Shown: positions 4,653 through 49,351 of the stretch, in pieces | Layout: each line of letters begins with the position of its first letter | How positions within the stretch are numbered: the stretch's first letter is position 1 | IMG/VR virus record: IMGVR_UViG_3300028393_000035 | Coordinates: 1 to 64,000 of that record | Source of the DNA: a virus | Length of the DNA stretch: 64,000 nucleotides | Reading direction: 5' to 3' (one strand) | Notes under the pieces: model-generated | Seen by the model: the letters and a program-made list of their open reading frames with translations, nothing else | What the model was told of the DNA's origin: nothing | Databases searched by the model: none | Position numbers and translations under genes: made by a program

Positions 4653-4653
4653 C

Positions 4654-4809: not shown

Positions 4810-4816
4810 ATGTATT

Positions 4817-4845: not shown

Positions 4846-4850
4846 GTTAA

Positions 4851-4943: not shown

Positions 4944-4973
4944 ATCTATTATAACACTCATGAGTGACCCTAG

Positions 4974-5056: not shown

Positions 5057-5062
5057 AAGTTA

Positions 5063-5221: not shown

Positions 5222-5266
5222 TGACTTTCCTTTGTATTGACTTTACTACAGTGCAATATAGCATAC

Positions 5267-8571: not shown

Positions 8572-8603
8572 CTTATATATTATAAGTTTGATTTATCTAA
8601 AAG

Positions 8604-8685
8604 TGGTGGGAGAAGGATTCGAACCTTCGAAGTCTGAGACAGCGGATTTACAGTCCGCCCCGTTTGGCCGCTTCGGTATCCCACC
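8604..8685 (-). tRNA. tRNA-Tyr(GTA)
   Basis: GGTGGGA acceptor; GCGGA-CTGTAAA-TCCGC; long variable arm. Confidence 0.95.
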
Positions 8686-8714
8686 ATAGTCTGCATAAAT
8701 TGTAAATGTACTAG

Positions 8715-8787
8715 CACCCCCGGCAGGATTCGAACCTGCGACAAACTGGATAGAAGCCAGATACTCTGTCCACTGAGCTACGGAGGC
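8715..8787 (-). tRNA. tRNA-Arg(TCT)
   Basis: Anticodon loop CTTCTAT; T-arm GCAGG-TTCGAAT-CCTGC; TGCTATACT box upstream at 8794-8802. Confidence 0.93.
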
Positions 8788-32281: not shown

Positions 32282-34176
32282 TAGACGATATTCCTTCCAA
32301 CCCTAAGGTTTTTAACAACAATTGGCCATGGGCTAGCCTCAGCAGGAGTCTTAGATGTATCAACAAGAAATCGTTCTTGATTTAAATAAACATCGGTATT
32401 TCTTGTAAATTTAATTTTTACAAATCTGCCAAAAACCATATCAAATGTAAAAGCTGAAATTCCCCACTTGTTTAAACTAGTTCCTTGATAATCTAACAAT
32501 GTATGATTTGGATACAGTGGATCAAACACAACTGGTTGATAAGTCCAGACGTTTTTAACTACTTTGACCTTGGTTATATTTGCTGTTTGAGACGGATTAG
32601 CAATATTTCCCTGTACAGTAAATGATGATGTAGTTGGGGTACCTCTAATGGTAAACGTTCCATTGTAACAAGTTGCCCCGCTAACTTCTGTAATAGTTAC
32701 AGAATCACCAACTTGCAAATTATGATCGCTTACAAATGTGTATGTGTAAGTTGTGCTTCCCGCTTCACTACCACAAGTGATTGAAGAAAGGTTAGGCAAA
32801 GATGTGTCTTGAATATCATCCGCATATGAAATTTCAATATCAATGGGAGCATTAAGTATTTCAAATATCAAAAAGTTTACACTTTGAGTACTGCCTAAAT
32901 CAATTATTAAATAATCATCGCCCGAAGTTTTTAATTCAGATATCCAAAGTTTATCACGTTGATAAGTAACTGTCGGAACATTATTAAGACTCAAATAATC
33001 AATTGGATATTCATGGTTAACAAAGCTTGTATTTGTATTTGCGTTTTGACGAGTGACAGAGATAGGTTCAGGATAATCCGCCAATGCTTTGTCCGCAGAC
33101 CACACAGCTCCGCTAGAAAGGTTTTTTAAAGCAGGAAACTTTGTAATTAATGCTGAATAATTATCTAAACTACCAACGGCGTATGACGAAGCAGTAACAA
33201 GATTTGGTTTATAAAATCCTTGATAGTGTTGCTGAAAATCATTATGATTTCTAGGAGCTTCTTTCTCAACATCTGCTTCAACCCAATAGATAGAATTAAA
33301 ATCATTGCCAGATTGAGTCGGCCAATTAATATTACTATTTCCTGTAACAAATTTAGTAACTTGATAAAATTCACTACTAGCGGAAACTGATTTGATATCT
33401 ATAGGGTGAGAATCTGCCTGTCCTAAACTAGTATTTAAAACAGTGTTCATTGGCTTAAGGTTTTCAACAGCATCCCGAAGTAAGCGCATAGTTTGCGCAT
33501 CAACTTCTTTAAGATTTTCAGCATTAGCAAAAACGCTAAGAACTTCATTAATGCTATCTGATTTTAAATTAGAGGGGGCAGGATCATTAGGAACGACTGT
33601 AAACTCTTCAGTGTTATAATATCCATTCCTATTTGCATTAATATTAAAATTATAATTTAATATTTGATCTGTATGCTGATTAAAAATGTGTTGATAATTT
33701 TCAATAATTCTTGTATTGTAACCAAGCGCTGATTTAGCGGCTAATCTCATTCCCTCAACTGTTGGTCCCAATCGTGCAGCATAAAAATAATCAATCGCTC
33801 TTTGTCTGTATGCTTCATCAAGAGATTTAATCAAAGCCCAAGAGTCAGCATCAAGAATGTTTTTTGAATTTTCTAAATACGATTCATCAAAATTTCTTGC
33901 AAATCGAAATGGGTTGCCGTACAATTTGTCAAGCTGATCAAAATTAAATCCATGTTCTTCTAATTGAAGTCGTGCATAAAAATAATTTAACTTTAAAAAG
34001 CTAACTCCAGCGGGACCAATTAAAGTATATAAAAATTTGTAAAGCCTAGAATCGGGCGAAGTATTAAAAACTTCTTCTGGAAAATTGTCTAGATAACTAA
34101 CAATGTTACCAGAGCTAGTTAATGCTTCAACTAAATACTGTTCATCTACTAGGGCATCATAAGTTGGTCTACTCAT
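32281..34176 (-). CDS. Baseplate wedge protein (gpI-like N-terminus) with discoidin-like domain
   Basis: DEAYRQR...LGPTVEGM; YLIIDLGSTQSVN; follows baseplate J. Confidence 0.75.
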   Translation of the reverse strand: MSRPTYDALVDEQYLVEALTSSGNIVSYLDNFPEEVFNTSPDSRLYKFLYTLIGPAGVSFLKLNYFYARLQLEEHGFNFDQLDKLYGNPFRFARNFDESYLENSKNILDADSWALIKSLDEAYRQRAIDYFYAARLGPTVEGMRLAAKSALGYNTRIIENYQHIFNQHTDQILNYNFNINANRNGYYNTEEFTVVPNDPAPSNLKSDSINEVLSVFANAENLKEVDAQTMRLLRDAVENLKPMNTVLNTSLGQADSHPIDIKSVSASSEFYQVTKFVTGNSNINWPTQSGNDFNSIYWVEADVEKEAPRNHNDFQQHYQGFYKPNLVTASSYAVGSLDNYSALITKFPALKNLSSGAVWSADKALADYPEPISVTRQNANTNTSFVNHEYPIDYLSLNNVPTVTYQRDKLWISELKTSGDDYLIIDLGSTQSVNFLIFEILNAPIDIEISYADDIQDTSLPNLSSITCGSEAGSTTYTYTFVSDHNLQVGDSVTITEVSGATCYNGTFTIRGTPTTSSFTVQGNIANPSQTANITKVKVVKNVWTYQPVVFDPLYPNHTLLDYQGTSLNKWGISAFTFDMVFGRFVKIKFTRNTDVYLNQERFLVDTSKTPAEASPWPIVVKNLRVGRNIV

Positions 34177-37100
34177 AGTACGCTATTCCAAGTATTTTGA
34201 GACTTAACCCTAATAGTCATAACCGATGATATGTCAGTGACTCCGCCAGATAACACTCCTTCCGGAAGGGCTGCAAGTTCGTCATCACCAATTTGAAAAT
34301 CTTCATTATATGCGCCATAACCAGTATTAACATTTATTCCTACGACCGCTAATACGTCCTTATCGGTTTTACTATTATATGTAATTGTAATCGGATAATT
34401 AAATGATGGATCAACTTTAAAATCTACGGAACTTGAAGCAGTAATCAATGTATAATTACTATTCATTTTAGCCGTAAATCCAATTTTGTTTACGGTGTCA
34501 ACCTTCCAAGAGTTTGTATCGGTAGAAGGGTTGGCTCCAACATTGTTATCAACAAGAGATTGATAGTATGTAGATCCATACAATACAACATCGTTCATTG
34601 AATAACTGAAATTTGCATCGTATATTTGAATTCTAAAATCATCAAATTCAATTACTTCAGGTTCATTTTTACCGTACTGAACTTTAAAATTACTTACGAC
34701 ATAATTTTTGCTTATATTAGTTAAAGCTGTATTAATTGCTGGAGGAACTTCACCGGTTAAAGTTACAGATCCATCATCAATATATGAAAGTTCATCATAA
34801 ATTTCATCTAGTAAAAGACTTCCACTTGTCCATGAATTAGATGTATTGCGATAAATTTTATAACCAGTGGCTTCATTAACTCTATCCCAAGTTAATTTAA
34901 TTGACCTACTTGTTACCGATGGAGTCACAGTAACATAACTTGATGCAGTAGTTTGACCATTTGCATTAATTGCAGTAATTTTATAATAATAAGCCACATT
35001 TAGTAATGCGCCAGTGGAATATTCAACGGCAGTTAAATTACTTGGAGCAAGAAGACCGGTTGCGTCTTGTTTTGGCAAATATGGAAGGTAAAGATTATAC
35101 TGCGTTGCCGTGCGACCATCTCCAATGTTAATCAAATCAAGTACTGGTTTACTAATCGATTGACCGTATTTATTTGTTTCAGTTAACCTAACCCGTGAAC
35201 TTTCAGTGTTATCGTACTCGGTTTTATTTTGATCTAATACGTCTTTAGACCAACGCACATTGTCAACTCCGCCAACGTTATGAATAGTTTGAATAATGTC
35301 TGATAATTGAATTTCATTTCCAAAATAAACATTGTCAAAATACCTCATTAAAGCAAGTCGAATTGATTCATTGACCGATGCTTTGTTAGCGCCAGTTGAA
35401 TACATTACAGTAATATCGGGTTTAAAATATCTTACTTTGGCTTTATGAGCAAGAACGTCGGTAGTTACTTGTTTATTTGTTTCTAATAAAGATTGAAGCG
35501 CGATAATATTACTATCATATTGATAATTATTAACATCGATAGAGGGATCAATAGTTGATAACAATAATGCAATGGTAGAATTGGCGTTATGCGAATTTAC
35601 ATAACTGCCATTTGCACCCCTGAGTTTAATTTGAAGCAGTGAACTTGGTTTATTTGGAAGCAAGGAGTATTGAATTTGCTCTGAATCTATAAGCAAGTAA
35701 TCATTGTCAGGAAATTGCCTTGTTGTGGTTGACGCAACTTCCATCAAAACATTTACAATTGCACCAGAAGCAGTAATTGCAGCAGCCGTAGTTCCAAATT
35801 GCCCCCTATTGATGCCGGTAAATGTATTTGACGTTTTTGCACTGTAACTAATAATTTCACTGCCAATTAAAATATATCCTGAGGCTGGGAATGGATCAGT
35901 TGAAGTAACTTTGATTGCAGTTAAGTTAGTAGCTGCTATGGTAACCAAAGTCACTTTGCCCGTATTAGCATCTCCGGTCAAAGTTCCAGTTATACTGTAC
36001 TTGATTGTACTACCGGCGGTTCCGGTAGTACAAACTGCTGAAGTTAAATTAAGTGCTGTACTTCCTGTAATTCCACTAATTTTAATTGTGTCGCCAACAT
36101 TTAAATTATGAGCGGCTGAAGTTGTCAATGTGGCAGTGCCGTCCGTTGCTGACGAAGTTGATACTGATATTTGATTACCGGAATCAGAAGCATTGGTAGT
36201 TGTTGATACGGCAGAAGAATTTGGCAACGCGGTTGCTAACGTAGCCATTGATAAAGAACTAGTGTTAATGTATGGACCTGTATATGGACCGCCGGTAACA
36301 TCTCCTGAACCCTGCGACGGAATAGTTGTAGACCATTCAATGCCGTTCCTCGCCCTTATTGTTCCATTTAAATCTGTTACCTCTTCTACTAACCAATAAT
36401 GTTCATCTTTATTAAAAGTTCCATTACTTAAACTAATTTGATCTGGCAAATCGATAACTGGTTGATGATATAAAGGAGTTAATACATTTCCTTTAACGGG
36501 TCGCCTACCCGGCTCACCCATTCGTCTATAATTATCAATATAAAACGCGCTAGTCGTATCATCAGTAAATTGAAATGTTGGAACAGAACTTCCGGGACGA
36601 GGAATTGTTACATTGCCGGTCGTTGCATCCTCTCCATTAACGTAAACATCAACGCAATTTAAAATGTTTCGATCATAGTCATTGCGAGATGCTGTAGACA
36701 TATAAGAATGTTCAAATAAAAGAACGTCGCCCGGAGCGATTGCGTTACTTGGACGGGTGCTAATATTGCCTATATAAACATTGGTAAATGTTATATTGGG
36801 TTGATACAATACTGGGGACTCAGTTGAGGTAGGATCAACCGTCCCAATATTGCGAGCGGCGTCACCCTTGTTTTTATCTTGAGGTAAGATGTTTAAAAGA
36901 TAATCATAACCGGAAGTATAATAAATTGGCGACAAACCTGAATCATTAGCAACAAAATATGGTAAATTATCATAAATATGTTTCGAATTATTATTATTTG
37001 ATAAATTAGTTGTAAATTGATGAATTTTATCAGATGGACCATTGCCTCCCGACGTTGTATCAGAAACGCTGGGAACTTGAATGTATTCGCTATATTTAGA

Positions 37101-37775
37101 AATTGGACCGACGACATTTGCTTTCTTTGATTTAGTCGAAAGCGCAAGTGATAAAAATTGATCTTTGGTACCAGCGAGGTTTCTAAAAGGACCGGCGGTA
37201 GTAAACCTTGCTTTAAGTTCAGTGTCTGACTCGCTATCTGTTCCACCGGTAATTGGGTATTCGTTATTTACCGCAGTAATGCCATAAACGGGCGCTCCAA
37301 CTGTTTCAGTAATAGTATTTGCAGCCACATTACCAATGATGCCGCCTTGAATAGCTTCAATAGGGGCAATAACTTCAGTAGTTCCGGCCTGCAATGTTAC
37401 AGTTGTGGTAGTTCTAAATACTACGCTTGTATTTCCATCACCACCATTAGGGGTAAAGACTGTGGTGCCAGATCGAATAATAACTGGATTTGTTGTAGCG
37501 GTTTCTCTTGAAAATGTTACGTAACCCGTTGCGCGATTACCAGCTTGACGACCAAATCCAAGAATGGCCAGCATATTGTCAAGATCAGTTCCAAATTTTG
37601 CATCAATATCAAATGCCCCATTTAACACATTAAGATCGACTTGAGCATCTGCTATTGCTTGCGCAACAGTATCAATAATCCTACGCTCTGGGGTTCCCAC
37701 TTCCGCAGAAATAGAAGGATCAAGCGCCCTTAATTGGGTAATCATACTTTGTGAAATTTGATCTTGTGTAGCCAT
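34173..37775 (-). CDS. Baseplate J-like protein with accessory insertions
   Basis: ATGYVTFSR, GNVAANTI, GGTDSESDTELKARF, VGGVDNV. Confidence 0.9.
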   Translation of the reverse strand: MATQDQISQSMITQLRALDPSISAEVGTPERRIIDTVAQAIADAQVDLNVLNGAFDIDAKFGTDLDNMLAILGFGRQAGNRATGYVTFSRETATTNPVIIRSGTTVFTPNGGDGNTSVVFRTTTTVTLQAGTTEVIAPIEAIQGGIIGNVAANTITETVGAPVYGITAVNNEYPITGGTDSESDTELKARFTTAGPFRNLAGTKDQFLSLALSTKSKKANVVGPISKYSEYIQVPSVSDTTSGGNGPSDKIHQFTTNLSNNNNSKHIYDNLPYFVANDSGLSPIYYTSGYDYLLNILPQDKNKGDAARNIGTVDPTSTESPVLYQPNITFTNVYIGNISTRPSNAIAPGDVLLFEHSYMSTASRNDYDRNILNCVDVYVNGEDATTGNVTIPRPGSSVPTFQFTDDTTSAFYIDNYRRMGEPGRRPVKGNVLTPLYHQPVIDLPDQISLSNGTFNKDEHYWLVEEVTDLNGTIRARNGIEWSTTIPSQGSGDVTGGPYTGPYINTSSLSMATLATALPNSSAVSTTTNASDSGNQISVSTSSATDGTATLTTSAAHNLNVGDTIKISGITGSTALNLTSAVCTTGTAGSTIKYSITGTLTGDANTGKVTLVTIAATNLTAIKVTSTDPFPASGYILIGSEIISYSAKTSNTFTGINRGQFGTTAAAITASGAIVNVLMEVASTTTRQFPDNDYLLIDSEQIQYSLLPNKPSSLLQIKLRGANGSYVNSHNANSTIALLLSTIDPSIDVNNYQYDSNIIALQSLLETNKQVTTDVLAHKAKVRYFKPDITVMYSTGANKASVNESIRLALMRYFDNVYFGNEIQLSDIIQTIHNVGGVDNVRWSKDVLDQNKTEYDNTESSRVRLTETNKYGQSISKPVLDLINIGDGRTATQYNLYLPYLPKQDATGLLAPSNLTAVEYSTGALLNVAYYYKITAINANGQTTASSYVTVTPSVTSRSIKLTWDRVNEATGYKIYRNTSNSWTSGSLLLDEIYDELSYIDDGSVTLTGEVPPAINTALTNISKNYVVSNFKVQYGKNEPEVIEFDDFRIQIYDANFSYSMNDVVLYGSTYYQSLVDNNVGANPSTDTNSWKVDTVNKIGFTAKMNSNYTLITASSSVDFKVDPSFNYPITITYNSKTDKDVLAVVGINVNTGYGAYNEDFQIGDDELAALPEGVLSGGVTDISSVMTIRVKSQNTWNSVL

Positions 37776-37776
37776 A

Positions 37777-38226
37777 TTATAAAGATACTGATAGTTTTAT
37801 TGGATAAGCTTCGGGGTTTGCTTTTGCAGTTATGAAATTAATTTCAACATTAGCAGCGGTTAAATTTTGCTCTAATTTAGTAATTTGAAAATCTATTACT
37901 ACTTCTCTGGCAGTTAAAGTTGCCTTACCAAATGACATTTTATCTACTTTGGCTCTTGATAATTGACGAGCTTTATAACGATTGACAACTGCTGCTATTT
38001 CTGTTTCAATTTGTAAATGTAAATCGTTAAGAGAATTTGGCGTAGTTCCTATAATTTTATTTTCTAAACTACTGCCGTAATTTTCATTGAATCGATTAGA
38101 TCCTCTTTTTTCAAGTAATTCGCATTTAATATCTTGCATTAATTTTTGTTCATTGGCAACTTTGGCAAGGCCTTTGCTGCCAAGGGCTAAATCACCGTCT
38201 TCTGTTAATCCTATGCTCCAAGTCAT
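37777..38226 (-). CDS. Baseplate gp25/gpW-like protein
   Basis: DGDLAL...KLMQDI...RGSNRFNENYGS. Confidence 0.8.
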   Translation of the reverse strand: MTWSIGLTEDGDLALGSKGLAKVANEQKLMQDIKCELLEKRGSNRFNENYGSSLENKIIGTTPNSLNDLHLQIETEIAAVVNRYKARQLSRAKVDKMSFGKATLTAREVVIDFQITKLEQNLTAANVEINFITAKANPEAYPIKLSVSL

Positions 38227-38253
38227 ATCTATATATTACATGATAGAAGTTGG

Positions 38254-38757
38254 TTAACCTACAGCGCTCCAACCAATATTTGATTCGCCAGATGTTTTTG
38301 CATACAAGGTGCTTCCTGCCGCACCATCTTTTCTAAGAAATAAACTACCAATCGGTGCTGTAGTAACGCCCTCAGGACCTCCGGTTCCTATAACAATCTT
38401 AATCGACCCAACTTCAATTACATTAGTTTTATCTATTGTTACCAAAGATGATCCGCTAGGAGTCTTAATAACTTCAGCCGCAACCTTGGCTTCTCCGGGA
38501 GCTAAATGCACAACTTGAGTGTCATCAACATTATCAAATTTAGTATCAAGTTTCCAATACCCTCCATCTTGACGGACGATCCAATATTCACCTTCTTTGG
38601 GCCAAACAAAAAATGATGGAACGTCAAATAATGAAATTTGAATATTACCTCCGTCTTTTAATTGAGCTTCAATTTTGCGGGTATCCGTATGCACTGTATG
38701 AATTCGCGCAGAATGCCTAGGACCAAACGCAGGATTAATATGATTGCGAATTGACAT
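38254..38757 (-). CDS. Baseplate spike-like protein (gpV position)
   Basis: OB-fold-like WPKEGEYW; C-terminal GPEGVTTAPIGSLFLRKDG...GW motif; between hub and gp25. Confidence 0.6.
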   Translation of the reverse strand: MSIRNHINPAFGPRHSARIHTVHTDTRKIEAQLKDGGNIQISLFDVPSFFVWPKEGEYWIVRQDGGYWKLDTKFDNVDDTQVVHLAPGEAKVAAEVIKTPSGSSLVTIDKTNVIEVGSIKIVIGTGGPEGVTTAPIGSLFLRKDGAAGSTLYAKTSGESNIGWSAVG

Positions 38758-38760
38758 TAT

Positions 38761-40263
38761 TTATTTCTTATCCGATTTAGATGGATCTTTATCCGTTGCA
38801 TCTTTAAATGTACCAACGGCATCTGTAGTAGGCCAAGCTCTAATCATTCCTGCATGAACCCAAGATTTATCTGGATCTGCTGGAGTCCCGTCTCCATTTT
38901 TATATGCCGCAGGAGCCATTAACTCCGCTGTAGTGGTGAAACCATTTTCATACGAGCAGTTATGAGTCACAGAACTGACATAGCACTGCAATCCATGTTC
39001 GGGAAACGCTACGATACCGCCGGGAAAAAGCTCGGGCATAAATGTAAATTGAAATTGAGTTTTAAATTGTTGAGACCAATATAAACAAAATTTTTGATAT
39101 GCTAAAAATGCTTCATAAATTGGTGCCCTAACCATAGGGGCTGGCTCATAATGCGGTCTTGCTCCGTATTTGCGCAAAAAGTTAATTGCATCTTCTTGTT
39201 TAACAAGCGTCGGATATTTTTTAGGATCTACGCCTTTAAGATCACCTTTTGCATCTACGCCATTAAGAAAGTCGGCCATAAAAGCATTGAATACACTAAC
39301 CACTCCGCCTGTATTTATTTTATCATAAACATCTACGTTGCCACTACCACTGGCCGCACCAGATGGAGGTCCAACAATATCTCCAACTACATAAACGTGA
39401 GTATATAATTCATCATCTGATAATTCGATGCTGCCACTAATAATTTCAATATCTTCAATAAACCAATAAGGAGTTTTTCCTAAACCGCCAAAGTAATCTG
39501 GGTAAAAAGCAAAAAAGTCTCCACTCGGAGTGGACATGAACTGCCTTAGACAAGCCATGGACAATTGCTGAATAAAAGGCATTAGAGGAGTATCATTCAT
39601 TAAACTTCTTTGACCAGTTAATGAATTTGATTCTATTGTGCTAACGAATCCGGGCATAGAAAAAAATGTTGAATAAGCAGCAGCTTTAGCAATTGCCCCA
39701 ACGTCAATGGTTTCTCCGCTTGGTTGAGTACCGGGTAAAATTGTTTGATCCGTTGGAGTACCAGTAGGATCACTAGCAATTGGATTACCGTTTTCGTCTG
39801 CATTGCCAAGTGAAAAATCTACAAATTTTCTTGGGGAAACGGCTCCGTTTGTTGTAGGTTCACCGCCTAGTGCAAACTCAGGTTTCATAACTACGCGAAC
39901 CCGATTACTTTGAGTAACCCATCCTTCGGAAACGCCTTTATTAACCGGTTTCCATTGTCCGTCACCAAGATTTACACTTGACGAAATGGGACCCAAAGCA
40001 ATACTGTCGTTTTCTTTAAAAATACCAATGGTTTCTTTAAATTGAAGGATCAGTGTTCTTTCATTGGCGTTATTCATGCCCCAAGTCCATCGAGATTTAA
40101 CTGGGGCGCTGATGGTAATGGTACCATTGCTAATACCATAAATTTGACTTTTCATTAATCCATGGGCTGCGCTTTGATTTCCATACTCAGTAATTGTATG
40201 TAAACCAGATGAAGTTGCATTTGGAAATATTGGTGCTGGTTTTTTAGCTTGTGATCCGGGCAT
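38761..40263 (-). CDS. Baseplate hub, C-terminal half
   Basis: SLMNDTPLMPFIQQL...STPSGDFFAFYPDYFG, FLRKYGARP, FMPELFPG, YVSSVTH...GFTTTAEL (late-control-D/gp27-like C-terminus). Confidence 0.8.
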   Translation of the reverse strand: MPGSQAKKPAPIFPNATSSGLHTITEYGNQSAAHGLMKSQIYGISNGTITISAPVKSRWTWGMNNANERTLILQFKETIGIFKENDSIALGPISSSVNLGDGQWKPVNKGVSEGWVTQSNRVRVVMKPEFALGGEPTTNGAVSPRKFVDFSLGNADENGNPIASDPTGTPTDQTILPGTQPSGETIDVGAIAKAAAYSTFFSMPGFVSTIESNSLTGQRSLMNDTPLMPFIQQLSMACLRQFMSTPSGDFFAFYPDYFGGLGKTPYWFIEDIEIISGSIELSDDELYTHVYVVGDIVGPPSGAASGSGNVDVYDKINTGGVVSVFNAFMADFLNGVDAKGDLKGVDPKKYPTLVKQEDAINFLRKYGARPHYEPAPMVRAPIYEAFLAYQKFCLYWSQQFKTQFQFTFMPELFPGGIVAFPEHGLQCYVSSVTHNCSYENGFTTTAELMAPAAYKNGDGTPADPDKSWVHAGMIRAWPTTDAVGTFKDATDKDPSKSDKK

Positions 40264-40317
40264 GATTAAACTACCTTTACTTGTCTTTTATTAATTGAGC
40301 GATATTGAAACATTTGA

Positions 40318-41457
40318 TTAATCAACTAATCTAATTTCCACATTACCCGTACCGTCTTGGGTAAAGTTTAAAGCATCCGCAGCGTCTCTCCATAAATCAA
40401 TAGCTCTATTGGGACTGCCGCTTCCGTATCCTCTATCGGTTTTTGATGCAATAATAGATTTTCCTTTGTATCTAATTTCGACTTTTGTAAACATTGGCAA
40501 TTCGCCAGATCGACCAAAAAGAGCAGCCATGTAACCTTGATTGGTAGCCAAACCATTACTTGTTGCAGTACCCAACTCTGCATAATTATAAAGCCCACCG
40601 GGAGCATTACCCAATTTTCCTGACGCTCCGGGAGGTGGATCATCAAACCAAGAGGCCTCTGTTGTCTTCCATCCTGACCCCCCAGTTGAAGGTTGAGCGG
40701 CACCTCCGCCTCCTCCACTTGTTGTAGTTGAAGTTGAAAATTTACCATAATCACCACGACCAATAATTTCTCTGACAAATTTGGCAACTTCTTCGTTAAT
40801 GTTTGAGTTATCTTTTTTGAATTCATCAAAAAGGTTTCCAACAACTTTTTCTATGTTACGAGGAAGTGATTGAATGTAAATATTATCATTGTTCCAACCG
40901 CCAATTTCATTAAGAACTCCATAAAGAAGATTACCAATACTGGAATCATTTAATCTATTAACTTTATTAATTTTTTGATTATCAGTATCTGCCGTACCAG
41001 CTTTACCATTAGACTTATCTAAGTTCCAACCGTAAGCTTTCATAAAATCGTTTACAAAAGAAAGTCCCGGATCAAAGTAAGTGTAATTTAATCGCTTTAA
41101 TGTACAAGAAGCTTTAATTTTGGCGGTCCCCGGAAACAATTGAACATCGGGAGTTGTGTCGCAATAACCTGTAAATACCTGAATGGGCTTGCCCGCAATT
41201 CTTTCAAGGATAATTGTTATCGGATCCATTGGATGAAAAACGGGAAGAACTTTGCCATCAGCTTCGCGTTCTGTAAACAAGAACCTAGGTTTATTGTCTT
41301 TAAGTACTTTTGGATTGCGAAATTCTAATTCAGCCGTACTGATGTTATCAATGACTCTGTAAACGTCACATTTGATTATGTACGGACTTAAATCGACTAT
41401 GCCAGAGTCAGTTTTGATCCAAGCTTTGATTGATGGAGAGTAAACTAATCTTTTCAT
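40318..41457 (-). CDS. Hub N-terminal half, paralog 3, + RlpA-like DPBB lytic transglycosylase
   Basis: Shared MKRLVYSPS... domain; ASWF, LPMFTKVEI, TDRG, RAIDLWRDAADAL. Confidence 0.85.
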   Translation of the reverse strand: MKRLVYSPSIKAWIKTDSGIVDLSPYIIKCDVYRVIDNISTAELEFRNPKVLKDNKPRFLFTEREADGKVLPVFHPMDPITIILERIAGKPIQVFTGYCDTTPDVQLFPGTAKIKASCTLKRLNYTYFDPGLSFVNDFMKAYGWNLDKSNGKAGTADTDNQKINKVNRLNDSSIGNLLYGVLNEIGGWNNDNIYIQSLPRNIEKVVGNLFDEFKKDNSNINEEVAKFVREIIGRGDYGKFSTSTTTSGGGGGAAQPSTGGSGWKTTEASWFDDPPPGASGKLGNAPGGLYNYAELGTATSNGLATNQGYMAALFGRSGELPMFTKVEIRYKGKSIIASKTDRGYGSGSPNRAIDLWRDAADALNFTQDGTGNVEIRLVD

Positions 41458-42735
41458 TTAAAAACCTTGAATGTGTCTAGGTGTAAATCCTTCTGTTGTA
41501 TGTGCATGCCACCATACAGTGTGCCCAGCGGGTGCGCTACTAGCAGTTCCAACAAATCTATTAGCAGCATCCGAATTGGCTAATTCAAAAAATACATGGC
41601 CACTGGGTCCAGCAGGCCCCTTTGTCCAAACAGTAAGATACTGTCCTCTACCCGGCTCTCCCCAAGTTAAAAATTCATCAGAGCTTGGAGCGTAATTAAA
41701 ACCTAATTTACCAATAAAATGAAGCATATAAGATACAAAGCTAGAGCAGTCAAACATTAAAGCACCGTCGCCGTCTACAGGAGGATTATTAAGATAATTG
41801 CCCTCTCTTTCACTACTAGCTCCTCCCGGTATATCGCCATCTCCACCAGAAACGTATCTTGTTTTGGCAGAAACAATTCTGTCAACTTCAGCTTTCCAAC
41901 GTCTAATTAGATCTGGAGCCTGCGACGGTAAGACTGGAGTAGGACCTGCGGCAGTACTAGAATCTGCAAGTGGTTGAGTAGACAATTGTCCGTATCCACC
42001 ACTACCAATAATACCCTTGACAAATTTGGCAACTTCCTCGTTGACTTTAGAATTGTCTTTTTTAAATTCATCAAAAAGATTTCCAACGACTTTGGCTATG
42101 TTGCCGGGGATCGGTTGAATATAAATATTATTGTTATTCCATCCGCCAATTTCATTAAGCGCAGCATAAAGTAAATTGCCAATACTGGAATCATGTAATT
42201 GAACTGATGAAGTTGGCACTTGTTTTGGATTTTCATCTTTTGTTGCTTGTTTTTCATTAACCGCAGTACCATTAGATACATTAATTATCCAACCATAATT
42301 GCGCATAAAATCTTGTACAAAATTTAATCCCGGATCAAAGTAGGTGTAGTTTAATCTTTTTAAAGTGCAAGACGCTTTGATACGAGCGGTACCCGGAAAT
42401 AACTGTACATATGGAGTTGTGTCACAATAGCCAGTAAAAACCTGAATGGGTTTACCCGCAATACGTTCAAGTACAATAGTTATTGGATCCATAGGATGAA
42501 AAACCGGTCTTATTGAAGTGCTACCATCTGAACCCGTATATTCGTTTTCAGTAAACAAAAATCTTGGTTTACCATTTTTAAGCACTTTTGGATTACGAAA
42601 TTGAATTTCAGCATTGCTAAGGTCATCAACTTTTCTTACAACCGTGCATTCGGTTACATATGGACTCAAATCAATAACCCCCGAGTCTGTTTTTACCCAA
42701 ACCTTGATTGACGGGGAGTAAGCTAATCTTTTCAT
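41458..42735 (-). CDS. Hub N-terminal half, paralog 2, + NlpC/P60 peptidase
   Basis: Shared N-domain; YVSGG, FDCSSFVSY, GHVF. Confidence 0.85.
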   Translation of the reverse strand: MKRLAYSPSIKVWVKTDSGVIDLSPYVTECTVVRKVDDLSNAEIQFRNPKVLKNGKPRFLFTENEYTGSDGSTSIRPVFHPMDPITIVLERIAGKPIQVFTGYCDTTPYVQLFPGTARIKASCTLKRLNYTYFDPGLNFVQDFMRNYGWIINVSNGTAVNEKQATKDENPKQVPTSSVQLHDSSIGNLLYAALNEIGGWNNNNIYIQPIPGNIAKVVGNLFDEFKKDNSKVNEEVAKFVKGIIGSGGYGQLSTQPLADSSTAAGPTPVLPSQAPDLIRRWKAEVDRIVSAKTRYVSGGDGDIPGGASSEREGNYLNNPPVDGDGALMFDCSSFVSYMLHFIGKLGFNYAPSSDEFLTWGEPGRGQYLTVWTKGPAGPSGHVFFELANSDAANRFVGTASSAPAGHTVWWHAHTTEGFTPRHIQGF

Positions 42736-44600
42736 TACTGCCCGCCTTGAATCGCTTTTGCTTTATTTATAATTTTATTTATCGGCAGGTTTCCCGGACA
42801 GTCTGGATGATCTCCGCCTCTTGATCCTAATTCGCCGTGTCCACAAATTCCATTTGTTGTAGACCTAACAAGCGGAATGTTAAATTTAGTAGACCAATAG
42901 GCAACCCATTGAGCAGATTTATTAATTTGCGCATCTGTAAATGCAGATACACTTTGACTTGCATATCCTATATGCTCAATTCCTAATGAATCTTTTGATC
43001 TATACCCGCAATGATGAGCTTGATTTTGATCATTAACAAAGCGAGCAGAGTTACCTTCATTATCAACTCCAACATGAACGGAAATTCCTCGATTTGGTAT
43101 GCCGTGCGCAGTCGCCCAATCACTTCTTCTCATTAATCCATCTTTCAAGTTTCGCAAATCTGCCGTTCCAGCAATATTATCAGTTTGAGTAACATGCAAA
43201 ACAATAATTTTTGGATTATTATTTGATTCCCAATAATTTAAACCGTCTCCATTTTGAGGAATTGGAAGACTTATATGCTCAGGCTCTGAACCCGGATTAG
43301 AAGCTGTTGCAACAGGTCTTAATGTGTTAACAACATCTGCAATAGTTTTTGCAAATACTAACTTGCCATGAGTAGTTGGATGAGGCTGATTATTTGGATC
43401 AATTTCTGCTTTTGAAGCCCAATCAGCAATTGACAAATTAGAATGTTTTGAATGTGCTTCTCTAATTGCTTCATTAACATGATTATTAGTTGTTACAGTA
43501 ACAAAAACTGCTTTTCGATTAGATCCAATATTAGCCATCGCTTTATCAATAGATCTTAAAAAGGTAGCTTTAGAATTATCTTCATCGTTTGTACCAAGTG
43601 CAACAATAACTATTCCGCCAAGAGATAATTTATTATTTTTTAAGATTTTTAATCCAGAATCTCCGCCCATAGTCGAAGATCCATAACCATCTGGACCCCA
43701 TGCCATATGTTTTGAATTTTCTGCATAAATAGTAATTCCCGGCATTGCAGCTTCAAGTTCGGTTCTACTCATGTTAGTAATACTGTCTCCAACCATGGTT
43801 ACTCCTGTTCCAGTAACGCCGTTAGAATCAGTGCTATTGCTAAGTAATTTACCGTAATCTCCATTGCCAATAATTTCTCTAACGAATTTGGCAATTTCTT
43901 CGTTAACGTTTTTATTATCTTTGGCAAATTCATCAAAAAGTTTTCCTACTATTTGAGATATGTTATTAGGAAGTGATTGAATATAAATATTGTCATTGTT
44001 CCAACCACCAATTTCGTTTAATACGGCATAAAGTAAATACCCAATGCTAGAATCATTTACATTGGTTGATTTAACAGCTTTACTGATTTGAGAATCTGTG
44101 ATGACACTGGCAGTACCGCTATTTCCTGCCCCGCCTTTTTTAACAACTCCATTTCCTCCTAATTGCCAACCATATTGACTCATAAAATCCATAACAAAAG
44201 GAAGTCCCGGATCAAAATATGTATAGTTTAATCGTTTAAGTGTGCAAGAAGCAGTTAACCGCGCAGTACCCGGAAATAGTTGAACATATGGAACGGTATC
44301 GCAGTAACCAGTAAAAACCTGAATGGGTTTACCTGCTATGCGTTCAAAGATGACTGTTATTGGATCCATTGGATGGAAAACTGGCCCAATGTTTCCATCT
44401 TTTTGAACTCTTTGAGTAAACAAAAATCTTGGTTTTCCATCTTGTAAAACTTTGGGATTGCGAAATACAACGTCTAAAGAACTAAGATCGTTTACTTTAC
44501 GCTGAACCCTGCACTCTGTAATGTGAGGACTTAAATCAACAACACCAAAGTCTGTTTTTACCCAAATCTTTACTGATGGGCTATACACTAGTCTTTTCAC
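42735..44600 (-). CDS. Hub N-terminal half, paralog 1, + SGNH esterase + Amidase_2
   Basis: Shared N-domain; GDS, LGTND, PHP; IVLHVT, SLGIE, CGH, DCPG; GTG start. Confidence 0.85.
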   Translation of the reverse strand: MKRLVYSPSVKIWVKTDFGVVDLSPHITECRVQRKVNDLSSLDVVFRNPKVLQDGKPRFLFTQRVQKDGNIGPVFHPMDPITVIFERIAGKPIQVFTGYCDTVPYVQLFPGTARLTASCTLKRLNYTYFDPGLPFVMDFMSQYGWQLGGNGVVKKGGAGNSGTASVITDSQISKAVKSTNVNDSSIGYLLYAVLNEIGGWNNDNIYIQSLPNNISQIVGKLFDEFAKDNKNVNEEIAKFVREIIGNGDYGKLLSNSTDSNGVTGTGVTMVGDSITNMSRTELEAAMPGITIYAENSKHMAWGPDGYGSSTMGGDSGLKILKNNKLSLGGIVIVALGTNDEDNSKATFLRSIDKAMANIGSNRKAVFVTVTTNNHVNEAIREAHSKHSNLSIADWASKAEIDPNNQPHPTTHGKLVFAKTIADVVNTLRPVATASNPGSEPEHISLPIPQNGDGLNYWESNNNPKIIVLHVTQTDNIAGTADLRNLKDGLMRRSDWATAHGIPNRGISVHVGVDNEGNSARFVNDQNQAHHCGYRSKDSLGIEHIGYASQSVSAFTDAQINKSAQWVAYWSTKFNIPLVRSTTNGICGHGELGSRGGDHPDCPGNLPINKIINKAKAIQGGQ

Positions 44601-44605
44601 GATAA

Positions 44606-45520
44606 TTAATTTCCGTTTGCGTCTGTTAAATCAAATTGACTATTAATTCCAATTTGTACACCATTTCCACGATGGTTGATTTGTGCGCCCGTAAAAGCTG
44701 TATCTGATATGCCACCGTTTGCGCTAATGTGCTTACCATTACTGATGGCATCGTTATATTGACCCTGAAGAATATTTTTTCTAATTTGAGCGCCATTTTT
44801 TGCTCCAAAGTCATCCTTGCGAAAAAGAGTCATCCAGTCCGTAATTTTAGATCCTGAACTTAAATCATTACCAAAAATGCCTTTATTTCCATCGGATTGG
44901 GCAATAACAAAATCAATGGTAAATTGAGGAGCAAAATTAAATTTAGTTCCGCCAGCAGCAATAGACTTAATGTAACCCTCTAATTGCATACCCTTTCTTG
45001 CACCCTTTTGATTTCTGGGTCGTCCCTCTACAGACCGTGGATTCATAATTAATGTTACGGTAGGAAGGGGAATTGTTGAATCGTCGCCATAATGTTTTAA
45101 ATAAAGATTTGATTTTTCACTGGCATTTGATTGAGGTCGTATATCACCATTCACATTTAAAGCTTCTGAATGAGATTCTCTAACAAAAGCGGCTAATTTG
45201 TTATACTCTCTTTGATTTGGCATTATTCCAGCCATTTTTAAAATAGGTTGATCAAATGAATGAGGGTAAAATTCTCTTTTCCAACGACTTTGACCAGTGC
45301 TACCAGTCATAGAAAAATCAATTGAAGCTTCTTCTACCCAAAGGTTCAAGTATTTATTATTTGTTTTAATAAGTCGAACGGTCCAATTATCTAATTTATT
45401 AGGATCGACATCGGGCGTACTAACTGCATATCCTGTGTCAACTCTAGGACCAGCTTGCCTATTTAATTTAGCTGCATTCTCAGCAGAATAAGGAATGGGA
45501 TCAATTGGATTATTAGCCAT
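44606..45520 (-). CDS. Minor tail/baseplate protein (tube-initiator-like)
   Basis: Likely start MANNPID at 45520, short overlap with upstream gene. Confidence 0.65.
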   Translation of the reverse strand: MANNPIDPIPYSAENAAKLNRQAGPRVDTGYAVSTPDVDPNKLDNWTVRLIKTNNKYLNLWVEEASIDFSMTGSTGQSRWKREFYPHSFDQPILKMAGIMPNQREYNKLAAFVRESHSEALNVNGDIRPQSNASEKSNLYLKHYGDDSTIPLPTVTLIMNPRSVEGRPRNQKGARKGMQLEGYIKSIAAGGTKFNFAPQFTIDFVIAQSDGNKGIFGNDLSSGSKITDWMTLFRKDDFGAKNGAQIRKNILQGQYNDAISNGKHISANGGISDTAFTGAQINHRGNGVQIGINSQFDLTDANGN

Positions 45521-46292
45521 TATTTTTATTGTCCTCAGATGGAGCTTTTCCATCACCGTTTTTACCGTTTCCAGTATTTTGAAACGCAGCGTTATATGCA
45601 GGTTTAGACCAATTGGCTCCCAATGCCTCCGTTGCTGCTGCACCGCTTGAACCGGGAAGCCAAGATTTAATAAACGAGTTATATGGGCCATTTGCACCAC
45701 TAAGCTCGCTATAATAATCTTGAGTTGCGCCAGCCTTATAAGCCTTGCCCGTGTTAGGAGTTGTCCAAGGGTTAAATTGATGAAATCCGATACGAGCCGT
45801 AGCGGTTCCAAAAGGTTTAAAACTAGGATCATCGACTTGAGCTTGAGCTTCTGTTTTAATTAACTGCTCAAAACTTTCTGGACTTTCAACAACTGCCGCG
45901 CTAATACTCCAAGTAGGAGCAACGACATCTTTACCATACCTAAATCCGGGCGCTGATTTAGGTTGAATAAGAAATTTCCAACCGCGAGCTGGATATTCAA
46001 AAGTAACAGGTGTGGTATCATAAGCCTGTGTTTTACCCTGAGTGGCAAGCTGCATGTAGGAAACAAACCATTGATAAATTGTTTCCATTTTACTGTATGA
46101 TGAAATGGTTCCTGTGATGGTCATGTCCTCAATAAACATTGAAAGAATTTGAACAACTTCGCCGCCAAAAGTTTGATAATTTTGAGTATTTAATCCATAA
46201 GACCAAACAATAGAATCAGGGTTGACTGATAATTTTAAATCAGGCAAAGCTTGAGTTGGATGAGAAAATATAATTTTTGCAGTATTAGCCAT
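45513..46292 (-). CDS. Tail tube initiator-like protein
   Basis: LSVNPDSI...QTFGGEVVQ...MTITGT; follows tape measure. Confidence 0.7.
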   Translation of the reverse strand: MANTAKIIFSHPTQALPDLKLSVNPDSIVWSYGLNTQNYQTFGGEVVQILSMFIEDMTITGTISSYSKMETIYQWFVSYMQLATQGKTQAYDTTPVTFEYPARGWKFLIQPKSAPGFRYGKDVVAPTWSISAAVVESPESFEQLIKTEAQAQVDDPSFKPFGTATARIGFHQFNPWTTPNTGKAYKAGATQDYYSELSGANGPYNSFIKSWLPGSSGAAATEALGANWSKPAYNAAFQNTGNGKNGDGKAPSEDNKNNG

Positions 46293-46297
46293 TATTA

Positions 46298-48172
46298 TCA
46301 CGTATTATTTTTTCCGCCGCCGTCTTTTCCTTGAGCGTCCTTAAGTCCCCTAGCAGCTTGCGCAGCAGTGTCTAATGAATTAACCAATTTATCAAAATTG
46401 TCTCTAGATATGTCTTGTTTATTATCTGGTCCGCGAGCTTTGTCTAAATCTCTTAATAATTTCTTTTCCCAATCAGCATTTAATATCCAATCGTGTCCTC
46501 CGCGTCTGCGATCTTTAGCAACTCCGGAGGTTACCAAATCCCTTTTAATTTCCTCCATTTGCTTAGGATCTTTGATTCCTGCACTCTTAAGAATTTTATT
46601 AATTTCGCTCTCGTTGGCCTGCTTTCCAGACACTGCGGGTAAATCATACCAACTTCCAGAATGAGTTTTAATACCTTTAACATTTGCAATTATTTCGCCG
46701 TTTTTATTTTTATTAAAATATTTTGATTCTGCTTTATCAATTGCAGATCTTTGCGGCGCATAATCAATAACATTTTTTATTTCTTCGGGCGAATAACCTT
46801 GAAAACCATAAAGATTAATCATATCACTAATTGCTAATTCTCCGGGTTTAGAATTTAAAAATTTGGAATTAACCTGTCCAATGGATTTACCAGTTAAATT
46901 TTGAAAAACAGATCCCATGGCGGATGTTAAAGCCCGTTGTTGTTCCGAAGGGGACATAGCGCCAGCTTGATAAGGCATGTAACCCATTTTCATAACTTGC
47001 TGTTGCGCCATGGGGTTATTCATTAGCGTTTGCAAATTTTTTGTAGGATCTATTCCCGGCATTGTGCGAGCCAATTCCGCTCCTTGAGGAATTGAATAAG
47101 CGGACGATACGCCTGATTGCCCTGCAAGTTGAGCATATGCTCCAAGTTGCTGTGTTAATTGTTCAGTCGAAACATTTGCACCTGCTGCTACTGCGTTAAG
47201 ATTATTAATAGTGCGAGTCAAATGAGCCACTTCATTTACGTTTCCAAATCGCAAAGTTTGATCTAATAGCGCACCCGCCTGCTGAGGTCTAATTGAAGGA
47301 TTAAAACGAGTAATGTTTTCTAATGCCATTTCACCTGTTTTAAATTGATTATTATTAAAATTAAATCCCATTCCCATTAAAGTGTTATCTATTTCTGCCA
47401 TTTGCTGCATATTAACGCCAGATCGAACAGCCTGACCCATTTGATGAAACTTCATATCCAACCCTTTTTCAAAAGCGCTATTAAAAGGATTTCTAAAACC
47501 AAACCCTCCAATTTCAATATTGCCGCCTACTTCACCACCAATTTGAGTTGCCCCATAATTTGATAAACCCTGCATGGCGCGATAAGTAGGTTGAACGTAT
47601 TGCTGAAACATCTTTTTGCCAGCTTCGTAATTAGGAATGACCTCATTGGCAAAAAAGTTTGCTCTGCGGCCAGATCGTATATATGCTTTTTGCTCATCAC
47701 TATCTGGCTCAGCCCTAGCCGCCTTTTCTAAATTTCTAAGCATTGCTGCTTTAGCTAAGTTTTGAGCAGTAATTCCGCCTTTTAATGGACCAAAGCTAGG
47801 AGGAATAGTATAATATTGTTGACCAAAAACGTCTTCAAAGGGTTTATCGCCGCGCAAACCGGCTCCAACTCTACCCAAAAGGCTTTTAGCATCTGAAGCA
47901 TGCTTGGATGGTCCATCACCAGCGCTTACCGGAGCATCTGGTGCTGTTGCCTCTTCCCACCTTTTCCAACTAATATCTTCTGCTTGCTTAGCTCTTTTTT
48001 CATATCCAAAGGTACTGGCACGACTACTAGTTAAATCATCAAACCTTTTTCTTTCACTGCTCTCAGTAAACCGTGCAATTAGGTTATCTAACTCAGGGCC
48101 GCCCAAAGCCTGTTTAAGTCCCCTTTCAACGGCGGCTGCAATTTCATCAATATTTGGATTATCTTCGGGCAT
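46298..48172 (-). CDS. Tape measure protein (short)
   Basis: Ala/Gln/Met-rich helical; follows tail chaperones. Confidence 0.75.
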   Translation of the reverse strand: MPEDNPNIDEIAAAVERGLKQALGGPELDNLIARFTESSERKRFDDLTSSRASTFGYEKRAKQAEDISWKRWEEATAPDAPVSAGDGPSKHASDAKSLLGRVGAGLRGDKPFEDVFGQQYYTIPPSFGPLKGGITAQNLAKAAMLRNLEKAARAEPDSDEQKAYIRSGRRANFFANEVIPNYEAGKKMFQQYVQPTYRAMQGLSNYGATQIGGEVGGNIEIGGFGFRNPFNSAFEKGLDMKFHQMGQAVRSGVNMQQMAEIDNTLMGMGFNFNNNQFKTGEMALENITRFNPSIRPQQAGALLDQTLRFGNVNEVAHLTRTINNLNAVAAGANVSTEQLTQQLGAYAQLAGQSGVSSAYSIPQGAELARTMPGIDPTKNLQTLMNNPMAQQQVMKMGYMPYQAGAMSPSEQQRALTSAMGSVFQNLTGKSIGQVNSKFLNSKPGELAISDMINLYGFQGYSPEEIKNVIDYAPQRSAIDKAESKYFNKNKNGEIIANVKGIKTHSGSWYDLPAVSGKQANESEINKILKSAGIKDPKQMEEIKRDLVTSGVAKDRRRGGHDWILNADWEKKLLRDLDKARGPDNKQDISRDNFDKLVNSLDTAAQAARGLKDAQGKDGGGKNNT

Positions 48173-48220
48173 ATAAATCTTCTTGATTATTAAGGGGTCG
48201 TATGTTACTATCTAACTACT

Positions 48221-48538
48221 ATGAACACATTTGAACATCAAGCTATTAAAACAGCGAAAGCATTTAGCATTGAAGGAGAGATAAGTTGGAGTCAACTTAT
48301 TATTCTTTCACCTATTATTATACCTACCGCAATTGTTTGGGGAATCCTTGATTTTGTATTTGGCACTTTGCCAGATATGCTATTAGGTTTTGAACCACCA
48401 TCTTCTCAACCAAAACGAACTCCAGAAGAAATGCAATTACTTCATCAGAAGTATCTTCAAAAGCAAGAAGCACTTAAGCAAAAGAGAATTGATGAAATTA
48501 AAGCAGATCTTTGGCCTGAAAAATACTCTAATCGATAA
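48221..48538 (+). CDS. Small membrane protein, antisense within tail operon
   Basis: LIILSPIIIPTAIVWGILDFVF hydrophobic segment; only sizeable ORF in the gap. Confidence 0.65.
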   Translation: MNTFEHQAIKTAKAFSIEGEISWSQLIILSPIIIPTAIVWGILDFVFGTLPDMLLGFEPPSSQPKRTPEEMQLLHQKYLQKQEALKQKRIDEIKADLWPEKYSNR

Positions 48539-49291
48539 CCCCAACTTGTTTAAGTTCACGCATTAATTTATTAAAATCAGACGTACTATCTGGAACAACA
48601 TGCTCTAATTCCTCTTCAGGGGCGTATTGAGCCTCTTCTCCAAATAGTTTACTATACAGTTGAGGGTTATTAGCAAATACGTTATTTTTTAATTCATCTT
48701 CTCTTAATTCATGTTGCATTTGCTCATCGCGCTGCATCATATACATCATGAGTCTGCGTTGAACGGAATTAAGTCCTCCGGACCTTCCTCCAGATAATCC
48801 ATTATCTCCGCTTCCGATGTTGAATCGGCCCTCTTTATCGAGGAGTCGGGCGAGGCCATAAAGGAAATCCGACCCTCTTTCGATAAATTTTCCATTTCTC
48901 TTAAAATGGATTCTTGTCTTTCTATTAATTCTACATATTTCATATAAATGTAATTAATGGTAGGTTCATACCAATTCTTGCTTACATACTGAAATCTTGC
49001 TCTAGCAAAATCCTTCTTATTAGGACCAGCTTGAGGACAAAAGTCTTCATTTCCGTCAACAGAAATTAATGCCATACCAACTTGAGCAGCGACCCAAGCC
49101 TTGGCCTGAGAGATAGAATCTTTGTAGTCCTTAGCTGCATAACCTGCAACCATTTCATCTTCAAGTTTTAATGTGCGAATCACAAATTCGTGACCGCAAA
49201 ACTCAAAAGAATCTTCTAAAAACCCTAGCCATAAAAGACCATCAACGTCATCAGCGACTTCATCAGGGAAGCCGTCATTACTTTCCATCAT
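48528..49291 (-). CDS. Tail assembly chaperone GT (-1 frameshift fusion)
   Basis: Slippery A AAT TTA at 48884-48890; -1 frame is open into the 48528-48749 ORF. Confidence 0.8.
48746..49291 (-). CDS. Tail assembly chaperone G
   Basis: GHEFVIRTL; between tube and tape measure. Confidence 0.8.
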   Translation of the reverse strand: MMESNDGFPDEVADDVDGLLWLGFLEDSFEFCGHEFVIRTLKLEDEMVAGYAAKDYKDSISQAKAWVAAQVGMALISVDGNEDFCPQAGPNKKDFARARFQYVSKNWYEPTINYIYMKYVELIERQESILREMENLSKEGRISFMASPDSSIKRADSTSEAEIMDYLEEGPEDLIPFNADS

Positions 49292-49351
49292 AAAACACTC
49301 CTTTAACTTTCCGCCTAAACGGAATCTTACTTATAAATTAAAGGACGGATC

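Follow-up and report, generated by a model that had tools for sequence, protein, structure and literature searches.

How a phage builds the tip of its tail when the protein at that tip is encoded in pieces is the question raised by a locus in the viral record IMGVR_UViG_3300028393_000035, of which positions 1-64,000 (the window) were analysed; the whole record is 97.5 kb long, is estimated to be ~61% complete, and comes from an uncultured contractile-tailed phage of roughly 160 kb. The hub at a tail tip is taken to be a homotrimer built from a single protein. In the window, three tandem genes, here called N1, N2 and N3, are followed by a single gene for a 500-amino-acid protein, here called the C-half (Table 1), and it is well supported that the N-halves and the C-half are two parts of one baseplate hub of the gp27/Mu gp44 type. 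Searches of the literature, with incomplete coverage, turned up no account of a phage hub that is split or has multiplied paralogues.

Three N-half paralogues

N1, N2 and N3 have in common an N-terminal domain (N-domain) of ~240 amino acids, with 68-73% amino-acid and 69-73% nucleotide identity, which in each protein is followed by a low-complexity linker rich in Gly, Ser and Thr and then by unrelated C-terminal modules; this arrangement, with its coordinates and gene junctions, is as it had been described in a first, sequence-only reading of the DNA. The stop codon of N1 and the start codon of N2 overlap by one base (TAATG), and the ATG of N3 follows immediately after the stop codon of N2. 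In the AlphaFold model of N3, the linker has a predicted local distance difference test score (pLDDT) of <50.

The three paralogues are old and under purifying selection. Paralogue pairs show a synonymous divergence (dS) of 1.2-1.5, a ratio of nonsynonymous to synonymous divergence (dN/dS) of ~0.16, and a longest exact nucleotide match of 26 nucleotides. When the window was compared with orthologues in L006 (L-numbers denote related metagenomic loci), dN/dS was 0.06-0.08 for each N-domain, which indicates that every paralogue has been kept by selection. An assembly artefact, which had been named as a possible source of the triplication, was ruled out by the dS, by the short longest match, and by recurrence of the layout in other samples, on independent contigs. 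The nucleotide identity, longest match and dS given above likewise rule out recent gene conversion or a high identity of the paralogues at the nucleotide level. A megablast search of the region against the phage collection gave no match.

Evidence for a split baseplate hub

The profile of phrog_2810, a family annotated as virion structural protein, has 952 positions and covers both halves, with the N-domains matching positions 47-266 and the C-half positions 651-920. A similar picture is given by a single homologue, gp129 of Mycobacterium phage Alice (948 amino acids), in which residues 48-264 align to the N-domain and residues 650-915 to C-half residues 174-452 (37% identity). An NlpC/P60 domain sits between the N-part and the C-part of Alice gp129, which bears out the earlier statement that phages of the Bxz1 type encode the N part, a hydrolase and the C part in one polypeptide. 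The order of sheath, tube, chaperone, tape-measure position, hub, gp25-like and J-like genes is common to Alice and the window, and the hub genes of the window lie between the gene in the tape-measure position and the gp25-like and J-like wedge genes of a contractile tail.

Nothing meaningful came of searching PDB sequences with a profile of the N-domain, with the C-half or with full-length N1, N2 and N3, and the link to solved hubs comes from fold comparison only. In the AlphaFold models, residues 1-126 of N3 mostly have a pLDDT of >85 and residues 240-460 of the C-half mostly one of 80-88. N3 residues 1-126 superimpose on residues 1-103 of the pyocin R2 hub (6u5h_A; Z 9.4, root-mean-square deviation (rmsd) 2.9, 99 aligned), residues 1-127 of the phi812 hub (Z 8.8), VgrG1 (Z 7.9), residues 4-118 of gp27 (1k28_D; Z 7.6) and residues 3-92 of Mu gp44 (1wru; Z 7.0). 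C-half residues 220-453 superimpose on residues 174-622 of the phi812 hub (9eug_E; Z 9.6), 149-325 of the pyocin R2 hub (6u5h_A; Z 9.2), 163-365 of gp27 (1k28_D; Z 9.0) and 144-337 of Mu gp44 (1wru; Z 8.4, 162 aligned), and Foldseek matched the C-half to the gpD/gp44-type proteins 3d37_A (E 3.8e-6) and Mu gp44 9ki1_G (E 3.1e-5). The models of N3 and the C-half thus fall on complementary parts, in the correct order, of the same solved hub chains, as had been proposed in the sequence-only reading, and it is this complementary mapping, together with the shared profile, the fused homologue and the gene order, that makes the case for a split hub.

It was further computed whether the two parts, which are encoded by separate genes in the window and in 14 other split loci, are predicted to bind. 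A model of the N-domain (residues 1-240) with C-half residues 171-500, built as a heterodimer of one N and one C, scored 0.73, as against 0.00 for the best control; a score of 0.73 was attained by 58 of 80 solved complexes and by 2 of 110 mismatched pairs. The model runs had at least 76% of contacts in common and a partner pLDDT of at least 71. This result supports predicted binding between N-half and C-half, while the pass may partly reflect the likeness of the halves to solved single-chain hubs.

Enzyme modules and a degenerate M23 domain

Both hub parts carry domains that resemble cell-wall enzymes. The Amidase_2 module of N1 is firmly assigned by its Pfam score, and it is the one module name from the first reading to exceed a curated threshold, with the SGNH, NlpC/P60 and double-psi beta-barrel (DPBB) assignments falling below theirs. 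An SGNH module in N1 is probable from its motifs; the module itself has no Pfam match at E 0.1 or better, and a module in L007 that is 55% identical to it has a weak match to Lipase_GDSL_2 (22.8 bits, cut-off 32.9). A module of this type would act as an esterase and would not cut glycan or peptide, which qualifies the earlier proposal of four muralytic activities at the tail tip.

The module of N2 is probably a cysteine peptidase of the NlpC/P60-CHAP clan, the clan to which the Atlas leads also point. The Cys of a DCS motif and a His are invariant across 7 aligned homologues, and relatives of the module in L006 and L013 have weak NLPC_P60 matches in Pfam (E 0.009 and 0.0014). A Pfam search with N2 itself gave no match, NlpC/P60 (PF00877) included, and the N2 module family was aligned to the NlpC/P60 region of Alice by hhalign with a probability of 20% only. 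For the RlpA-like DPBB module of N3, a match below the Pfam cut-off (Table 1) is joined by a fold match of N3 residues 318-378 to the PA4485 structure (4avr_A; Z 6.2, rmsd 2.0, 59 aligned, 25% identity).

The hub C-domain is encoded once in the 97.5-kb record, itself ~61% complete, as had been claimed; the 500-amino-acid protein is, however, more than the C-terminal part of a hub, as it begins with an M23 fold that is joined by a disordered linker to the C-domain. The first ~160 residues match lysostaphin (4qpb_A; Z 10.5, rmsd 2.7, 123 aligned), the cell-wall-degrading tail enzyme of phage phi29 (PDB 3csq; Z 10.0) and the LytM domain of DipM (Z 8.6) in fold comparison, and no Peptidase_M23 was found in the C-half by a Pfam search. 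The zinc-binding and catalytic HxxxD and HxH motifs are lost, as is the central His, with HAGID, GWGH and HVHF of relatives replaced by SQIYG, ALGP and VRVV. Judged by these residues, with metal ligands and catalytic positions both gone, the domain is enzymatically dead. Between the window and L006, its dN/dS is relaxed (0.37), and that of the hub C-domain is 0.054. Any role for the dead domain in wall binding or positioning would be a guess.

The position of this domain also bears on where the hub gene was divided. In relatives of ~500 amino acids, a Peptidase_M23, Amidase_2, NlpC/P60 or Amidase_5 domain is recognisable at the M23 position, and in the fused protein of L015 an M23 domain immediately precedes the C-domain. 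Enzyme domains at the start of the C-half, together with the L015 arrangement, indicate that the cut lies inside the enzyme insert and not at its edge, which refines the earlier suggestion that the hub had been cut at the point of enzyme insertion.

Proposed assembly of the hub

The make-up and mixing of the trimer described here are inferred by analogy with solved hubs. In most relatives, a single protein of ~950 amino acids consists of an N-terminal hub part, inserted peptidoglycan hydrolases and a C-terminal hub part; the gene of the window is cut inside the enzyme insert. The N-half would comprise a tube-like barrel and a helical subdomain, with its enzyme modules tethered by the flexible linker, and N- and C-halves would re-associate non-covalently, like the two parts inside one fused chain. 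Three N sites and three C sites would then form a ring that closes the tail tube. Two barrel domains alternate in gp27-type rings, as seen in the T4 structure, and each N-barrel would accordingly be flanked by C-halves and not by other N-barrels. Since N-barrels are expected to touch only C-halves, and since there is one kind of C-half, the N-halves would be interchangeable, and it is somewhat more likely than not that N1, N2 and N3 substitute for one another and that virions carry mixed trimers. The make-up of such trimers would follow expression levels, with on average one of each and not a fixed 1:1:1.

Once the sheath has contracted, the enzymes on their tethers would act on the wall nearby. 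They could plausibly work in the order de-O-acetylation by the SGNH module, stem-peptide removal by the amidase, cross-link cleavage by the peptidase, and cleavage of the bared glycan by the RlpA-like module, where both order and specificities are inferred from what these families do elsewhere.

Several points weigh against a split hub with mixed trimers. The Z values of 7-9.6 are in the middling range for the fold-comparison tool, and the tube-like barrel recurs among tube, initiator and distal tail proteins, which makes the N-domain match alone non-specific for hubs. Three of the four enzyme assignments are under curated thresholds. The trimeric state is drawn from likeness in fold, contact of N-halves with C-halves only is drawn from what is known of gp27-type rings, and it is an assumption that virions contain all three N-halves. 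That at least 5 sub-lineages have exactly three N-halves, and that neither half exceeds three copies, could be accommodated by a fixed design with one of each as well.

The wide occurrence of the barrel makes other locations conceivable for an N-half, and in one alternative a single N-half would be structural and the others accessory, serving as decoys or as soluble or ejected lysins that dock elsewhere through the N-domain. Of the 59 residues in the predicted interface, 44 are the same in all three paralogues, compared with 102 of 179 elsewhere (Fisher p 0.011), a bias that also counts in favour of the predicted binding of N-half and C-half. All three N-domains thus retain the predicted C-half contact residues, their dN/dS is equally low, and the only other known setting of the N-domain is the start of fused hub proteins, all of which speaks against accessory copies; this alternative is regarded as improbable, and as the least likely of those considered.

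Distribution and evolution of split loci

An exhaustive search with the N-domain profile gave 689 clusters at 50% identity, and the lengths of the proteins are bimodal, at ~360-620 and ~830-1100 amino acids. Hub parts were counted in each of the loci fetched (20 + 51 + 73, with many duplicates among them), and both fused and split alleles with a variable number of paralogues were found, a comparison to which the sequence-only reading had pointed. A single fused gene is present in about 80 contigs, and 15 contigs are split, with one to three N-halves. Nine of these have three N-halves and one C-half (the window, L006, L026, L007, L008, L009, L010, L011 and L029), and three have one of each (L012, L032 and L071). 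The remaining layouts occur in one contig apiece: two N-halves and two C-halves in L033 (3913-9151); two N-halves and three C-halves in L013 (7534-14330), where each C-half has its own M23 or P60-like domain; and, in L015 (5419-10969), a split pair beside a complete fused gene. All split layouts belong to one metagenomic clade, and in no surveyed locus does either half exceed three copies.

One reading of the recurrent three-plus-one layout, put forward from the sequence at the outset, is an obligate, symmetry-broken heterotrimer (N1:N2:N3:C of 1:1:1:3) with a defined enzyme set at every tail tip. This layout recurs in 9 contigs, across at least 5 sub-lineages with diverged N-domains; neither half is found in more than three copies, purifying selection on each paralogue is strong, and the N genes are tightly coupled, with a conserved spacer before the C-half, which would be needed threefold. 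VgrG heterotrimers offer a precedent (PMC8668125). Were this reading true, every virion would display a fixed four-step set of esterase, amidase, endopeptidase and glycan-strand lyase, and the dead M23 domain would be an element for wall binding or enzyme positioning. In more general terms, splitting of the hub gene and later multiplication of one or the other half, limited by a trimer's three slots, would be a means for phages to multiply the enzymes of the tail tip. Relatives from the same clade, however, have one or two N-halves and two or three C-halves, which means that the fixed design is not general, and in the three-N locus L009 one N-half of 246 amino acids (6285-7022) consists of an N-domain with no enzyme module, whereas its L008 orthologue carries SLT. 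A single C-half would flank every N site, and no feature that enforces one of each was found. In the N-domain tree, furthermore, paralogues group by phage lineage and not by gene position, so that they are nearer to each other than to their positional counterparts elsewhere, the opposite of what fixed slots predict. An obligate heterotrimer is considered unlikely on these grounds. Loci with one or two N-halves are nested among the three-N loci in the same tree, where the bootstrap support of some of these nodes is no higher than 84-88%. That exactly three copies recur, and that neither half goes beyond three, is a real pattern and suits a structure with three slots, whether trimers are mixed or obligately heterotrimeric; the variable copy number of both halves and the likeness of N-domains within lineages are a better fit to interchangeable subunits than to three fixed slots.

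Enzyme modules are swapped independently of the N-domain between close relatives. L006, which comes from another sample and has a C-half 77% identical to that of the window, shows the same three-plus-one layout with N-domains that are 88-93% identical to those of the window, while the modules are 72% identical, 41% identical or unrelated. N1 carries SGNH and Amidase_2 in the window and Amidase_2 and SLT in L006, the N2 modules are those with 41% identity, and the N3 modules are unrelated. A P60-like module is on N-halves in some phages and on a C-half in L013.

Such rapid swapping would fit adaptation to host walls, as expected if each tail held three copies of one N-half, for example through co-translational assembly, and a phage thereby produced three kinds of virion as bet-hedging across hosts or wall types; no data demand that different N-halves be present in one particle. 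The interface residues, on the other hand, are largely alike in the three paralogues, which leaves no visible basis for self-sorting, and the N genes are translationally coupled and presumably made together. Homotrimeric hubs of this kind are judged a little less likely again than an obligate heterotrimer.

Comparison with known systems

The closest known system is the fused hub-lysin of cluster C actinobacteriophages (Bxz1-like, including Alice gp129, and covered by phrog_2810), which is a true homologue of both halves with 29-37% identity. Its gene lies at the corresponding point of the tail module, and one or more peptidoglycan hydrolases are inserted between its N and C hub parts. The fused protein is one polypeptide with one copy per genome, whereas in the window the protein is split in the insert, the N-half is triplicated and each copy bears its own enzyme set.

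More distant are the hubs of T4 (gp27), Mu (gp44), P2 (gpD) and R-type pyocins, which have the same fold by model comparison, with an N-terminal barrel and a C-terminal part. By analogy with gp27-type hubs, the hub of the window is expected to be a trimeric ring that closes the tube and docks the spike. Sequence similarity between these hubs and the halves in the window is undetectable, and gp27-type hubs are single chains without tethered enzymes. The lysozyme of T4 is located on the spike protein gp5 and not on the hub.

Another parallel lies in the evolved VgrG proteins of type VI secretion, where a single trimer can be made up of paralogous hub-type subunits that differ in their C-terminal effectors (PMC8668125). 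In VgrG, gp27 and gp5 parts are fused, with a beta-helical spike and an effector at the extreme C-terminus, as opposed to the hub of the window, which is split and in which only the N-half is multiplied. No spike part (gp5-like OB fold or beta-helix) was found in the four proteins of the window, and fold matches end within the gp27-like part of VgrG (4mtk_A 5-100 and 146-350). The likeness to evolved VgrG drawn in the first reading is therefore valid in concept, and the window hub is not a member of the VgrG family. In phage phiKZ, the tail fibre paralogues gp131-gp135 have a common N-terminal anchor and differing C-terminal parts, and form a hetero-oligomer in the virion (PMC13250141). The phiKZ fibres are peripheral, are without enzymes and are unrelated proteins, while the case in the window concerns the central hub.

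The dead M23 domain has counterparts in the degenerate LytM factors EnvC, NlpD and DipM, which have an M23 fold without metal ligands, like C-half residues 6-160. EnvC, NlpD and DipM are cellular regulators of Amidase_3-type amidases. Unlike these factors, the dead M23 domain of the window is joined to part of a virion hub, and the amidase encoded by the phage is of the Amidase_2 type.

A split hub would show how several wall-degrading activities can be loaded onto three slots and exchanged as cassettes with the assembly interface untouched, and would offer a natural, testable case of hetero-oligomeric virion parts. The N-domain with its linker could serve as a scaffold on which selected enzymes are displayed at the phage tail in laboratory studies of phage and host, and a widespread family of 'hypothetical proteins' from freshwater and soil metagenomes (the 689 clusters above) can now be identified as hub halves.

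Gene order and other features of the window

The tail module is on the minus strand and is transcribed in the order sheath, tube-position gene, chaperone, gene in the tape-measure position, phrog_2786 gene, one further gene and the hub genes. N1, N2 and N3 are followed by a 54-nucleotide spacer, the gene for the 500-amino-acid protein, a gene for a 167-amino-acid protein, the gp25-like gene and Baseplate_J.

Table 1. Positions of hub genes, their domains and neighbouring tail genes in the window
Feature	Position	Strand	Remarks
N1, hub N-half, 621 amino acids	42735-44600	-	GTG start; N-domain ~43851-44600; phrog_2810 E 1e-35
SGNH-like module of N1 (probable)	~43311-43796	-	GDS and GTND motifs
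Amidase_2 module of N1 (residues 460-603)	42792-43223	-	Pfam PF01510 58.7 bits, cut-off 26; E 1e-15
N2, hub N-half, 425 amino acids	41458-42735	-	N-domain ~41992-42735; phrog_2810 E 5.5e-30
NlpC/P60-CHAP clan cysteine peptidase module of N2 (probable)	~41461-41868	-	motif, weak matches in relatives, Atlas leads
N3, hub N-half, 379 amino acids	40318-41457	-	N-domain ~40744-41457; phrog_2810 E 1.5e-33
RlpA-like DPBB module of N3 (candidate)	~40333-40512	-	Pfam DPBB_1 (PF03330) 25.7 bits, below cut-off 28.8
Spacer between N3 and C-half, 54 nucleotides	40264-40317	-	32-nucleotide stretch identical in L006 and L026
C-half, 500 amino acids	38761-40263	-	phrog_2810 profile positions 651-920, E 2.5e-55
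Degenerate M23/LytM domain, C-half residues 6-160	~39784-40248	-	fold match
Hub C-domain, C-half residues 187-463	~38875-39705	-	after disordered linker
Tail sheath	49973-51823	-	phrog_2839 E 2.5e-41; Phage_sheath_1C; marks contractile tail
Tube-position protein	49352-49969	-	tail module
Tail chaperone, 181 amino acids	48746-49291	-	phrog_2792
Gene in tape-measure position, 624 amino acids	46298-48172	-	position only, between chaperone and phrog_2786 gene, as in Alice
167-amino-acid protein	38254-38757	-	directly downstream of hub genes; candidate central spike or hub-docking protein
gp25/W-like baseplate protein	37777-38226	-	phrog_2669 E 2e-13
Baseplate J-like wedge protein, 1200 amino acids	34173-37775	-	Pfam Baseplate_J 64.8 bits; phrog_6

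The genes that flank the spacer have a dS of 0.5-1.3, and the identity of 32 nucleotides within it despite this divergence suggests a functional element, which perhaps serves a higher demand for the C-half. It had been noted that the C-half has a late-type motif of its own; across the window, this motif had 9 matches with three or fewer mismatches, against 6.3 expected, and is not recurrent beyond chance, which leaves a separate late promoter for the C-half unsupported, although the spacer is conserved in close relatives. Scans of positions 37500-49500 for sigma-70 and terminator consensus sequences gave results at shuffle level.

The gene for the 167-amino-acid protein is placed after the hub genes in the way that Mu gp45 follows gp44. 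The protein has a weak match to the N-terminus of phrog_2952 (minor tail protein), and the Atlas leads point to spike families with a score of 0.76 only. Its counterpart in L006 (11495-13219) has 574 amino acids, of which the first 109 are 85% identical and the remainder unrelated. The gene looks like one for an N-domain of a spike, or one that docks to the hub, whose distal portion has been exchanged or shortened, with the spike assignment a weak lead.

Family searches gave no match for the 624-amino-acid protein in the tape-measure position or for the protein of the open reading frame (ORF) at 44606-45832. This ORF and that at 45513-46301 (both on the minus strand) overlap by 320 nucleotides, and the orthologue of the former has 307 amino acids in L006, which places its true start probably near 45530. 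A 73-amino-acid ORF comes after the chaperone ORF and overlaps it (48528-49291 for the two, minus strand), which is the usual layout of a frameshifted tail chaperone and is annotated, as joined, in Alice gp123/124. Downstream of the hub, the 1200-amino-acid Baseplate_J protein and the next protein, of 631 amino acids and the DUF7297 family (32281-37775 for both, minus strand), each have a weak match to E1_FCCH, which may reflect a small beta-domain repeat common to the two. Six tRNA genes are clustered at 2630-8787 on the minus strand: Met, Ile(tat), Met, Leu, Tyr and Arg(tct).

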